A DNA stretch of 64,000 nucleotides from a virus, in IMG/VR virus record IMGVR_UViG_3300032770_000003, positions 64,001 through 128,000 of that record; one strand, written 5' to 3'. The notes below the pieces were generated by a model. The model worked only from the letters and a program-made list of their open reading frames with translations. It did no database searches and had not been told where the DNA came from. The translations under genes were made by a program, and so were the position numbers. Below, one piece after another: positions 42,647 through 45,598 of this stretch. Position 1 is the stretch's first letter. Every line of letters begins with the position of its first letter.

Positions 42647-44338
42647 CTAGTGAGTTCCAGCGATTGCTGTGAAGATGGCGTCAGCCAGGGCCTGCGCCAC
42701 GGGATAGCTGTAGCCCCGCCGGGCCTGCAGATAGCCGAGAGCCTCTTGATACGAGATCTTCTCTGCCTTCTTGATGTGGTGACCGGGGAACGTCTGAATC
42801 TTGGCGCTGCCTTCGAGCGACTGAGGTCGGAGCACGCCACCCATGCCACCGGCGGTGAGTGCCTTCTCCTCTTCCTCGGTCTTCGTGGGCGCTGCCATGG
42901 ACTTCAGCGCGGGGCCACAGGTACAGCACCCACCCTTGCAGACGTCGTCCCAGGGATGCAGGCACCACTTCTGCTTGCCCAGTGACTTGACGATCTCGGC
43001 CCAGGTGTTGGTGTTTACAGGAGAGTTGTGTGCTACAATCCCATTCGCCTCATACCACCCCAACGACGTATCGAGATTGTAAACATGGCCAGACCAATCG
43101 AACCGTCGCGAGCTAGCGAGATCGCTGAAGCCTATCGCTTGGGAGAGCGTCCGGCCGCTATCGCCGAACGTTACGGAATCACTCGTGAGGGAGTCTGGCT
43201 CATCGCCAAAAGACTCGGCGTACGGCGAGATCGCTCTGAAGGGCAAAAGCTCCGCTGGCAAAACGCCATTCCCGCTGAGCGCAAGAAGTGGGAAACCGAA
43301 GGGGCCAAGCATCTGCGAAAGCAGCCCATTCCCGAAGAAGCTCGGCACAAGATCGCGCAGTTTCGGGAGGAACACCTTACGCTTGTCGGCCGCGGCGAGC
43401 GCGTCCTTGCCGAACTTCTCAAAGAACGCGGAATCCAATCGGTACTGCAGAAGGCCGTCGGTCGATACAATATCGACGTTGCCGCCGCATCCGTCGCCGT
43501 GGAAATCTTTTTCACCAACCGTACAAACCCTGTGAAGGGAACGCGTCCGGGAGGAAATGCGCGCAAGTTCAAATACCTGCTCGAAAGTGGGTGGCACATT
43601 CTGTGCATCATGGGTTCCAATCGTCGACGCAATCGACGACCCGGCAGTTTTCGTCCAGCCGACCAGATCACGGTTGAAACGGCCGATGCGGTAGCGGCCT
43701 TTATCAAGCTGACCAAGCGGTACCCAACCATGATCCGTGAATATCGGGTGATTCGGTGTTCCGGTGAGCTTCTCACCAGTAGCCAGTACGATCTCAACCA
43801 TCTGGCCGGTGTACCAACGTCGGCTGACCTTTTTTGACGCACCACAGACGCGAACGTCGCCAGGGAAACAGGCAGTAATCGCCACATCCTGCAGCCAGCA
43901 CTTGGCGATGGTATTCCCCTCTCGCCGAAGCACCTTGCCCTGGATCGAGAAACCAACCTTCCGATTGGACTCGTTGGCTGCGAGCGCGGTGATGTGGTCC
44001 CACCAGTACTCAGCGCGCTCCTTGCCCTTATACAAAAACCCCTTCAACCAGAGCCCAGCCGGGGTGATCCGGCATTCCGCGGGTTCGCCGACCTTGTGCT
44101 CAGGGCCCTCTTTGTGGTCGTCGTTGATGTAGCCGTACTTGAGGAAGTAGCCGTAGTCGATCCCGTTCTGACGGACCACTTCACCCTGAAGGTCACGGTC
44201 ATCTGTGGACGCGACCCCTTGGATCCAGCGCTTGCCGTCCTTACTCTCAGCCTTGGAGATCTTCTCCACCGGCATGAAGAAGTGGAAGGTAGAACCGGTG
44301 CCCAGCAAACGGTCTTCTATACCGTCCACTAAGCGCAT
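42647..44338 (-). CDS. Prohead protease containing an intein
   Basis: I.G.AST...D.QGE, G..NDDH, GFSIQG and VAITA|SPVN motifs; ATG 44338 with GGAGG RBS. Confidence 0.9.
   Translation of the reverse strand: MRLVDGIEDRLLGTGSTFHFFMPVEKISKAESKDGKRWIQGVASTDDRDLQGEVVRQNGIDYGYFLKYGYINDDHKEGPEHKVGEPAECRITPAGLWLKGFLYKGKERAEYWWDHITALAANESNRKVGFSIQGKVLRREGNTIAKCWLQDVAITACFPGDVRVCGASKKVSRRWYTGQMVEIVLATGEKLTGTPNHPIFTDHGWVPLGQLDKGRYRIGRFNRDLVGWTKTAGSSIASTIGTHDAQNVPPTFEQVFELARISSRTRSLHRVCTVGEKDFHGDGCGGNVDIVSTDGLLQYRLDSAFFEKFGKDALAAADKRKVFLPKLRDLVPSFFGNGLLSQMLGPFGFPLLALSGNGVLPAELLPFRAISPYAESFGDEPDSLTSDSVTFGDSGRTLSQAIGFSDLASSRRFDWSGHVYNLDTSLGWYEANGIVAHNSPVNTNTWAEIVKSLGKQKWCLHPWDDVCKGGCCTCGPALKSMAAPTKTEEEEKALTAGGMGGVLRPQSLEGSAKIQTFPGHHIKKAEKISYQEALGYLQARRGYSYPVAQALADAIFTAIAGTH
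43029..43039 (+). promoter_or_regulatory. Candidate extended -10 promoter for the antisense nuclease
   Basis: TGTG-c-TACAAT about 45 nt upstream of ATG 43085. Confidence 0.5.
43085..43837 (+). CDS. HTH + DUF559/Vsr-like PD-(D/E)xK endonuclease, antisense within the intein
   Basis: 250 aa; N-terminal HTH (EAYRLGERPAAIAERYGITREGVWLI), then E..L...L..RGI...Q..VG.Y.ID......VEI...L...GW.IL pattern. Confidence 0.8.
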   Translation: MARPIEPSRASEIAEAYRLGERPAAIAERYGITREGVWLIAKRLGVRRDRSEGQKLRWQNAIPAERKKWETEGAKHLRKQPIPEEARHKIAQFREEHLTLVGRGERVLAELLKERGIQSVLQKAVGRYNIDVAAASVAVEIFFTNRTNPVKGTRPGGNARKFKYLLESGWHILCIMGSNRRRNRRPGSFRPADQITVETADAVAAFIKLTKRYPTMIREYRVIRCSGELLTSSQYDLNHLAGVPTSADLF

Positions 44339-44856
44339 GTCACGTGCCTCCATCTCTTCCCCTGAGTGATCAGAGCAATGGCGGAACGTGTGACATTCAG
44401 CCTAGTGGCGATCCAACTCTGGGATCGCCCCAACCTTCGCCAGTTCAATACTTGCTGAATATCCGCTTCAGAAAGCTTAGCGCTACCACGCGGATGAGCG
44501 GCGCCCTTTGGGGCATTGGTACGTCCCCACGCTACGCAATCAGCGCGATTCTGGCGGTGAGTACCCTCGCTCAGATGATCTGGATTCACACAGTGGCGGA
44601 CATCGCAAGCGTGTAACGTTTCCATCCCCGGTAAGAGCTGGCGGCCTAGCTTCTGTTCCAAAACCAGCCTGGCAGCGATACGCGGACGACCGTTGAACCA
44701 AAACCACGCACAACCTTTGTTGTTCCTTGCACCTGTCCAGAGATGGCAAGGCCCCAGCCCTGGACGAGCCTCAGGCCCATTCAGGTCAATGAACTTCCGG
44801 AACCGGAAGGTCTCGCCTTCACCAAGCAGCTGATCGTTGATCTCTGTGAGTCGCAT
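44329..44856 (-). mobile_element. Free-standing HNH homing endonuclease with C-terminal HTH
   Basis: C.LWTGA, H.CD...CVNPDHL..GT...N..D and KL.E.D....GRSQ..IA....V motifs. Confidence 0.88.
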
Positions 44857-44948
44857 CAGAGGGAGGGGGCTCGCGGCCTCATCCTCCCTTTGATGGAGCG
44901 ATGCTGCTGAGTGATTAACGTAGGCGGATCTTGGTCAGCGAGTCAACA

Positions 44949-44975
44949 TGAATCCTCTCAGTCCGAGAGGATTCA
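44949..44975. promoter_or_regulatory. Palindrome TGAATCCTCTC-N5-GAGAGGATTCA next to a TTGACT -35-like box
   Basis: 11-bp arms; on the minus strand followed by TTGACT-18-TACGTT, upstream of the protease/capsid operon. Confidence 0.5.
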
Positions 44976-44978
44976 GAC

Positions 44979-45167
44979 TCACTTGTCCAAGTACAGCTGG
45001 GGACCCGGATCGGGCGGCGCGGGGAGCTTCACCTCTTCGCCGCAGCTTTTACAGACTGCGTAATACCCGTCAGCGCGCAGCAAAACCACCTTCGCGCGCA
45101 CCTTCCCCCAGCCCGCGGTGCCTTTGACGATCACCTCGGAACACTGACACGTGAGGAGAGCGTCTAC
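44979..45167 (-). CDS. Zinc-ribbon-like small protein (no canonical start before first CxC)
   Basis: Read by hand: (V)DALLTCQCSEVIVKG...YAVCKSCGEEVKLP...DK*. Confidence 0.45.
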   Translation of the reverse strand, partial: VDALLTCQCSEVIVKGTAGWGKVRAKVVLLRADGYYAVCKSCGEEVKLPAPPDPGPQLYLDK

Positions 45168-45598
45168 TCCTGCCGCGTCAGCGTCTTGTAGGTTGAGTCT
45201 GACAGCCAGGGCGGTCTTCCTTGTTCAGTGAGCGCTTTGGTGAGTGCTGGACGCATTGCATCGTATTCGGCGTCAGGTAGCACGACGGCGCCGACGTAGC
45301 CCTTCATGTCGCGGACGTAGGGGCAGGTTTTCGGGAAGGCGCCCTTGCTGATGGCCTCAGCAAGCGGCATGCACCAGCCCTTCGCCACCTCGTGCCGGCG
45401 CTCGTAGACCGAGCAGCAGCTCTTCCCGTTGCTCTTGTCCACCGCCAGGTGCTTGCAGCGCAGATCGGGGATCAGCACCGTTGTGGTCCCGCTCTTGGCG
45501 ACGGGGACTGTCGCGTGACAGCACGCACCACAGTCGACACACATCGACTCCAGCTCAGACTTCGACAGCCCCTCCAGATGGATCGGCAACCGCGTCAC
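45164..45598 (-). CDS. YkgJ/CxxCxxCC-family cysteine cluster protein
   Basis: CVDCGACC...RC..L......C.VY..R motif. Confidence 0.75.
   Translation of the reverse strand: MTRLPIHLEGLSKSELESMCVDCGACCHATVPVAKSGTTTVLIPDLRCKHLAVDKSNGKSCCSVYERRHEVAKGWCMPLAEAISKGAFPKTCPYVRDMKGYVGAVVLPDAEYDAMRPALTKALTEQGRPPWLSDSTYKTLTRQE

Follow-up and report, generated by a model that had tools for sequence, protein, structure and literature searches.

The window examined here, a 64,000-nt stretch of viral DNA that constitutes bases 64001-128000 of an uncultured IMG/VR virus record (171 kb in all and about 96% complete), contains on its minus strand an HNH endonuclease gene that is joined in frame to the start of a prohead protease gene. 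The HNH open reading frame (ORF) is made up of codons 1-17 of the protease gene followed in frame by an endonuclease with HNH_3 and helix-turn-helix (HTH) domains, and the protease ORF downstream of it is complete from a second, strongly diverged copy of its own 5′ end onwards. Judged from its sequence, the arrangement is likely to represent a free-standing HNH_3/HTH homing cassette, with cleavage as a predicted activity, that occupies the 5′ end of the essential protease gene without splicing. The analysis supports its description as a gene-end replacement cassette for homing in a phage, of the HNH type and located at a 5′ end, where it has captured the start of the gene; elements of this general kind are known from yeast and from fungal mitochondria.

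A duplicated protease start on either side of an HNH gene

The head-assembly operon on the minus strand of the window has the order zinc-ribbon gene, HNH ORF, prohead protease (42647-44338), scaffold protein and major head protein. The HNH ORF (44856..44329) encodes 175 amino acids and its N-terminus reads MRLTEINDQLLGEGETFRF, and that of the protease, read from the ATG at 44338 on the same strand, is MRLVDGIEDRLLGTGSTFHF. That these two ORFs begin with duplicate N-termini, as the original prediction held, was borne out statistically. The peptides share 12 identities with one gap, giving a local BLOSUM62 score of 52 compared with 28 for the next best of the 948 ORF N-termini in the 171-kb genome, and a score of 52 was reached by none of 20,000 shuffles. 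At the DNA level 32 of 57 nt are identical and different codons are used at eight of the 11 shared residues other than methionine. The longest stretch common to the two copies, and the sole DNA-level repeat visible between them, is a 12-mer with two mismatches, which a repeat search found as ACCTTCCGGTTC at the left junction (44800..44811, minus strand) and, 521 nt away, as the direct repeat ACCTTCCACTTC (44279-44290).

A chance resemblance or an assembly artefact would draw on nothing except the shortness of the segment (17-19 residues), and its probability is negligible. It is refuted by the alignment score and the shuffles, by the collinearity of the leader in front of the HNH ORF with those of related alleles (see below) and by an independently assembled contig. 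The only public sequencing run that contains the stretch is a wetland metagenome, which is the probable source, and in a second, independent assembly of this run the whole region lies within a single 17.9-kb contig, at a uniform depth of 29 and with zero differences.

The copy at the head of the HNH ORF (the H copy; 44806..44856, minus strand) comprises the native protease start and codons 1-17 (MRLTEINDQLLGEGETF) and provides the sole start of the ORF. It is followed at 44329..44805 (minus strand) by the HNH_3 core (residues ~18-115), a linker, a C-terminal HTH (residues ~130-164) and a TAG stop, as delimited with Pfam, PHROG and AlphaFold. Because the ORF has no ATG, GTG or TTG start apart from the captured one, the endonuclease is made as a fusion from that start, barring the use of a non-canonical codon. 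Its stop codon (44331..44329) overlaps protease codons 2-4, amounting to a 10-nt overlap with the protease start, and the protease is served by a new Shine-Dalgarno (SD) sequence of its own, GGAGG, which lies within the 3′ coding sequence of the HNH gene (44351..44347, minus strand), where the original prediction had placed it, and 8 nt before the ATG. The downstream copy (the P copy; 44285..44338, minus strand) supplies replacement protease codons 1-18 (MRLVDGIEDRLLGTGSTF), the DNA of which is strongly diverged when compared with the H copy and with L001, an HNH-free relative described below. The P copy leads into the conserved protease core (43871..44284, minus strand), an N-extein that extends from the first invariant motif, F.FF.P, and that was recognized from its collinearity with HNH-free alleles, from blastn and from PHROG_1028; in the alignment with relatives the invariant protease columns begin at F18, F20, F21 and P23. 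Mechanical ORF calling places the start of the protease at another ATG, at 44353 (MEARDMRL...), five codons upstream of the start served by GGAGG (44339-44353). This ATG belongs to the ribosome site that contains the GGAGG, and comparison with relatives identifies the ATG at 44338 as the real start.

The insertion had originally been placed about 19 codons into the protease gene, a figure that has to be revised: the junction follows codon 17, and the residues RF (18-19) belong to a motif of the endonuclease family, RFW.KV. In 15 database homologues of the HNH protein, 5-15 unrelated N-terminal residues precede the family motif RFW.KV...CW.WTG, and across the boundary the window protein reads ...ETF|RFRKFIDLNGPEARPGLGPCHLWTG. 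Since the alignment of homologues places RFW.KV at this point, the HNH part starts at R18 and residues 1-17 are protease peptide. Exactly at the junction of captured codons and HNH core there is a near-perfect palindrome (44791-44812; 10-nt arms separated by 2 nt) that is made of a tandem TTCCGG TTCCGG and encloses the left copy of the 12-mer. It may reflect a past recombination event, belong to a recognition site or have arisen by chance.

Rare TTA and ATA codons in the P copy had also been remarked upon. Their rarity is real, TTA accounting for 2% of leucine codons and ATA for 6% of isoleucine codons in the genome, but their significance is reduced by the finding that TTA followed by G yields the HNH stop codon (ACATGCGCTTAG) and that the overall codon adaptation of the P copy, at the 21st percentile among gene N-termini, is no outlier. 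The codons of the P copy are thus compatible with recoding or with foreign origin and by themselves demonstrate neither.

The view that no splicing is involved was upheld by searches for both classes of spliced element. A group I intron is ruled out by the lack of any RNA family match in 44100-45200, where no Rfam family was matched up to E = 1. An intein is ruled out for the HNH ORF by its own stop codon and by the restart of the protease at a new ATG, and no intein family in Pfam or PHROGs was matched by the HNH ORF.

The native leader and the replacement 5′ end

Comparison was made with about ten HNH-free, intein-free protease alleles from IMG/VR and Joint Genome Institute (JGI) metagenomes (L001, L002-L004, L006, L007, L011, L102 and others), the protease of L001 having 88% amino-acid identity to that of the window. 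The window HNH gene is absent from this site in all fetched relatives, and every HNH-free allele has a zinc-ribbon gene, a leader of ~120-200 nt and then the protease ATG. In L001, L003, L004, L006 and L102 the leader and start align with the DNA that precedes the HNH ORF. The present protease start is preceded by HNH coding sequence, in which there is no trace of the native leader and which does not align with the leaders of relatives. Because the conserved leader element aligns in front of the HNH ORF, the HNH gene sits behind the native leader and start codon of the protease, to which it had been proposed to be fused, and the upstream, HNH-borne N-terminus is the one in the ancestral position.

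The native leader, which now drives the HNH ORF, occupies 44857..44978 (minus strand), is collinear with the HNH-free leaders and matches that of L001 in blastn at 80% over 64 nt. It contains a perfect 10-bp hairpin, detected as inverted repeats, at 44949-44975 (minus strand) and, in our own reading, a TTGAC box at 44946..44942; a scan of 44100-45300 for promoters and terminators returned nothing at the thresholds of the tools. In the leaders that were inspected by eye a TTGAC box is found ~50-110 nt upstream of the ATG. A conserved hairpin is predicted at ~44853-44904 (minus strand), in which the SD-like AGGGAGG pairs with CCTCCCT and GCATC pairs with the start-codon region GATGC. This structure is supported by a consensus fold, by a minimum free energy of -28.2 kcal/mol (z = -2.1) and by equivalent leaders in L001, L003, L004, L006 and L102; in the five closest alleles the element takes the form GCATCGCTCCA..AAAGGGAGG-loop-CCTCCCT..GATG. 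The folding predictions make it probable that the leader hairpin regulates translation of the protease-scaffold-capsid operon, and any control that it exerts is inherited by the HNH gene because both the SD-like GGGAGG and the ATG are paired in the predicted fold.

Among pairs of HNH-free alleles, DNA identity ranges from 0.60 to 0.75 in the N-region and from 0.63 to 0.80 in the adjoining 399-nt core. In the window, the H copy has an identity of 0.71 to L001, the P copy one of 0.46 and the core one of 0.80; no pair has a lower N-region value than the P copy, and none exceeds this core value. With the expected identity set at 0.72, a value that we chose from the allele pairs, a binomial test gives p of about 6e-5 for the P copy. 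By this sequence comparison the H copy lies at the distance from the nearest relative that is expected of an orthologue; the displaced H copy is the resident and the downstream P copy the replacement, in agreement with the proposal that the protease had received a diverged 5′ end. Homology to L001 restarts at codon 17 of the protease copy and continues at 80% (blastn), and the inserted unit therefore consists of the HNH core, the GGAGG and replacement codons 1-18, ending just before the first invariant protease motif, F.FF.P. An AlphaFold model of the L001 protease, which can serve as a hint only since its confidence is low (mean predicted local distance difference test score, pLDDT, 52), leaves residues 1-15 unmodelled and has its first strand from residue 17.

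The same final anatomy would be left by a local rearrangement that imported no replacement end, either a tandem duplication of the protease 5′ end into which an HNH gene was subsequently placed or a deletion that fused an intergenic HNH gene to a duplicated start. The 12-nt junction repeat and the palindrome at the fusion point are in keeping with such an origin, as is an intergenic HNH gene found at the same site in another relative (L012; see below). Copies produced in this way should nevertheless resemble each other and be about equally distant from L001, whereas the P copy is an outlier (0.46 compared with 0.71 for the H copy and 0.80 for the core); moreover, the P copy retains no trace of the native leader, and the pattern of end duplicates recurs at other genes in two more HNH_3 copies. 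A rearrangement of this kind is accordingly judged improbable as the first step.

The endonuclease, its paralogues and its presumed mobility

The HNH ORF matches Pfam HNH_3 with E = 6.9e-7 (29.3 bits; cut-off 24.8) and PHROG HNH families from residue 30-36 onwards, the Pfam and PHROG profiles alike beginning only at about residue 30. Residues C37, H82, C84, C89, P92, H94, L95 and N103 are invariant in 16 HNH homologues, the window protein included. The AlphaFold model has a mean pLDDT of 82 and is confident from about residue 18, residues 1-16 being below 50, and it ends in a three-helix bundle (residues 130-164; pLDDT >89) that aligns with the HTH region of the homologues. Foldseek comparison of this model with the PDB gave weak rows only (best E about 0.1), among which were I-HmuI, I-PpoI and HTH proteins.

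The captured peptide is particular to the window protein. It was found in none of 31 HNH homologues drawn from 5.8 billion proteins, in none of 80 IMG/VR loci and in none of three paralogues from the same genome, so that the possibility raised with the original prediction, that HNH proteins elsewhere carry the same N-terminus, received no support. When 80 distant IMG/VR HNH loci were scanned for an N-terminus resembling the start of the downstream gene, there was no convincing case, and for that reason start capture is not regarded as a general trait of HNH_3 proteins. One match, at L072, scored 44 against a null maximum of 36 and was discounted as low-complexity and GC-rich.

The HNH core has a GC content at third codon positions (GC3) of 0.58, and the protease core and the genes for scaffold and capsid have values of 0.79-0.81, a difference that is a stronger sign of foreign origin than the rare codons. 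It is also relevant to the suggestion that the protein is a domesticated partner in packaging or head assembly, like the HNH proteins encoded beside HK97-like terminase genes, and not a selfish element. Its position within the head operon and its co-expression with the protease would suit such a role. Every relative with the same head module lacks it, however, its architecture is the HNH_3 plus HTH of homing enzymes, its GC3 is foreign and its three paralogues, of which one is in decay, are scattered over unrelated loci, so domestication appears very remote as an explanation.

These three further HNH_3 copies (L014, L015 and L016) lie outside the window. At L015:1483-2070 (about G000:C1:52880-53386) the start of the HNH_3 gene overlaps the stop of a ribonucleotide reductase gene in the sequence TGATG. 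The C-terminus is ...SQGCG* in the reductase and ...DQGCG* in the HNH protein, which copies it with different spellings of all four shared codons; the ribonucleotide reductase of a relative ends in ...SGCG*. From its sequence this locus looks like a 3′-end replacement cassette. At L016:1266-1671 (about G000:C1:14103-14500) there is an HNH_3 remnant, 5′-truncated and frameshifted, that ends in GFDTSAPAVLADWLRE, and the 473-amino-acid product of the gene upstream of it ends in GLDTSMPQVIADFVGGRI, of which the remnant's end is a diverged copy; the ends compared are DTSAPAVLADW and DTSMPQVIADF, and the locus looks like a decayed cassette of the same 3′-end type. Of the 1,506 frame ends in the genome, that of the adjacent gene gives the best non-self match at each of these two loci. 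End duplicates are therefore seen in three of the four HNH_3 copies of the genome, the window HNH included. At L014:1492-1995 (about G000:C1:18975-19478) the HNH_3 ORF starts GTG-AGLSLIH (MAGLSLIH) and the overlapping downstream gene starts MASLSLLR; the shared codons all differ in spelling, there is a rare TTA and no relative was found in IMG/VR.

A further HNH gene occupies the protease 5′ end in L012, a more distant relative. There, at L012:3413-3990 (compared with L007 and L104), an unrelated ORF with an HNH motif and no Pfam match follows the native leader and is inserted precisely where the protease start codon lies; the protease has acquired a new ATG and lost three codons. Because this HNH is unrelated to that of the window, the 5′ end of the protease gene has been invaded at least twice, independently.

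Since the HNH gene is fused after codon 17 of the native gene, it is transcribed and translated from the leader and start of the protease itself. On the homing-cassette reading, the enzyme would in a mixed infection cut or nick unoccupied alleles near codons 17-20, where TF.FF.P begins, and the break would be repaired from the occupied allele, with the leader and captured copy as the left arm and the protease core as the right arm, so that the cassette is copied across. The divergence of the P copy would shield the rebuilt gene from recutting and would also prevent loss of the element through recombination between the 51-54-nt repeats. After translating the HNH ORF, ribosomes may reinitiate at the overlapping protease ATG, in which case the protease may stay under the control of its old leader; the GGAGG may also act independently of such coupled reinitiation.

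Several observations weigh against this interpretation. A single occupied allele has been found, there is no donor-like form and the closest HNH relatives, with 38-47% identity, are at other loci. The identity comparison is based on short segments (51-54 nt), and the divergence of the P copy could in part have been caused by its overlap with the HNH stop and by the new initiation region. The rebuilt gene still has an intact copy of the presumed target motif, TF.FF.P, so any immunity would have to come from the recoded bases that precede this motif. Occupied and unoccupied variants were not seen in the contigs of the source metagenome, in which rare variants can be hidden by assembly. Finally, the resemblance of starts at L014 scored 23, below the chance level of 27 set by 4,645 candidate starts, and was not counted.

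The first of these points bears on whether the element is still mobile. Neither the same cassette in other backgrounds nor discordant trees, which would be evidence of spread, were found, and with a single occupied allele, no close HNH relative and no donor-like form, spread is not observed. This lowers the claim of present-day activity and leaves the anatomy unaffected; the element may now be inactive. A fossil cassette, having arrived by homing or by illegitimate recombination and being mobile no longer, with an HNH enzyme that may be inactive or have no target left and a layout that persists only because precise deletion is hard, is an unlikely alternative to an active one, though the most serious of those considered. 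Besides the solitary allele and the want of close relatives, it gains from the truncated and frameshifted paralogue at L016, which shows that decay does happen in this genome, and from the replacement of the near-invariant family motif GYG by GCA in the window HNH. Its weakness is that the ORF is intact, with all invariant catalytic and zinc residues kept and a confident model, and that the captured peptide is unworn; the identity of 0.71 to L001 argues for a recent event.

A more speculative extension of the homing-cassette reading is that the captured 17 residues, which correspond to the variable N-terminal extension of the protease, and the shared leader tie the HNH protein to head assembly, so that it is produced together with proheads, perhaps loaded into them, and delivered with the DNA. 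We regard this as quite improbable. If true, the HNH enzyme could attack unoccupied relatives at the very start of a mixed infection, and, because translation is coupled, the phage would be unable to silence it without losing the protease.

Related systems and the genomic setting

Homing elements are usually taught as introns, inteins or intergenic free-standing genes. By analogy, the window cassette can be likened to a 5′ mirror image of the WHO elements of yeasts and of mobile ORFs in fungal mitochondria. WHO elements at the FBA1 gene of Torulaspora and Lachancea yeasts consist of an endonuclease gene and a resistant FBA1 3′ half, and a homing model in which the old FBA1 3′ end serves as a homology arm has been shown experimentally (Coughlan et al., 2020; PMC7282813). 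A later preprint assigns elements that restore their host gene through replacement of one of its ends to a third category, known from yeast and, compared with introns and inteins, "considerably more rare" (Osborne et al., 2026; 10.64898/2026.08.13.744650). Like WHO elements, the window cassette needs no intron or intein and pairs the endonuclease gene with a substitute for one end of an essential gene; the original end has been displaced and would act as a homology arm, the new end is exceptionally divergent and unoccupied alleles exist. The window cassette differs in that the new end is a 5′ end of no more than 17-18 codons, its counterpart in WHO elements being the 3′ half of a nuclear gene, and in that its enzyme is of the HNH_3 type and those of WHO elements are LAGLIDADG/intein-like. 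Its displaced end is also still alive, as the promoter, leader, start codon and first 17 residues of the endonuclease. In addition, cleavage and allele specificity have been shown experimentally for WHO elements, while for the phage cassette both are predicted.

Mobile endonuclease ORFs bearing a foreign gene end have been described in fungal mitochondria at Allomyces macrogynus atp6, Ophiostoma rps3 and Phlebia radiata cox2 (summarised in PMC4019555). These resemble the window cassette in that the endonuclease is fused in frame with an end of the host gene and a duplicate or foreign end keeps that gene complete. They are, however, organellar, encode GIY-YIG or LAGLIDADG enzymes and involve the C-terminal end, in contrast to the phage location, HNH enzyme, N-terminal end and hijacked translation start seen here.

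In phages of the T4 family, free-standing endonucleases such as the seg and mob genes lie between genes ("intronless homing"), and insertions that divide nrdA, gene 39/60 and gene 43 into two polypeptides are known, including mobE in nrdA of Aeh1 and mobA at T4 gene 60 (PMC2988022). The window cassette is likewise phage-borne and located in or beside an essential gene, break repair with co-conversion of flanks would be expected, and its HNH_3 architecture with a DNA-binding domain resembles that of the Mob class. The T4 cases are nevertheless intergenic or split the host gene into polypeptides that reassemble, whereas here the protease is kept in one piece by a duplicated, recoded start and the endonuclease is without a start of its own. 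I-HmuI (PDB 1u3e) belongs to the same catalytic fold family, Pfam HNH_3, and with I-PpoI was among the top, weak structural matches; it is encoded within a group I intron, in contrast to the window HNH, at which no intron RNA is detectable. Duplicated, recoded gene ends are described neither in the T4-family review (PMC2988022) nor in a survey of nucleases of phage ICP1 (PMC10448857), and no published description of a gene-end replacement layout in a phage was found in the literature searched.

The logic of gene-end replacement would thus extend to a phage, to the 5′ end of an essential structural gene and to an HNH enzyme, with the added twist that the host gene's leader, start codon and first codons now serve the endonuclease. 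Given that three of the four HNH_3 copies in this genome show end duplicates, elements of this type may be overlooked in phage annotation, where they would take the form of an endonuclease with a short extension of no obvious origin at its N- or C-terminus. Gene calling is affected as well, because the first ATG of the protease frame lies five codons upstream of the start served by GGAGG. Such elements have a bearing on the mosaic ends of essential phage genes and offer compact natural "cleave and rescue" designs.

The protease of the window belongs to PHROG_1028, the SPO1-type head maturation protease family (E = 2.7e-44), and among cultured phages it matches only SPO1-type (Herelleviridae) proteases, at <46% identity. 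The stretch had no DNA match among the known phage genomes of INPHARED. No joined form or variant was present in the contigs of the source run, and no RNA run is listed as containing the stretch.

The gene upstream of the leader (44979..45134, minus strand; ORF list) is small and zinc-ribbon-like and is a conserved upstream neighbour of the protease gene, with a homologue directly upstream of the protease in L001, L003, L004, L006, L011, L012 and L102. Within the protease gene, an intein of 282 amino acids (CFPGD...VAHN|S) occupies 43025..43870 (minus strand); it is absent from all relatives, which read AITA|SPVNTNTW. It is followed by the C-extein and stop codon of the protease (42647..43024, minus strand), which were assigned from the ORF list, blastn and alignment, and an antisense ORF on the plus strand (43028-43837) that encodes 269 amino acids with HTH and nuclease-like features lies inside the intein. 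This intein (43025-43870) is a second, independent mobile element in the protease gene, and mobile elements are frequent in the region of the head module. Further upstream, the window contains a gene for a cysteine-rich protein of 144 amino acids (45164-45598), the homologue of which at L102:336-1283 has an insert with LAGLIDADG-type motifs that is apparently an intein.

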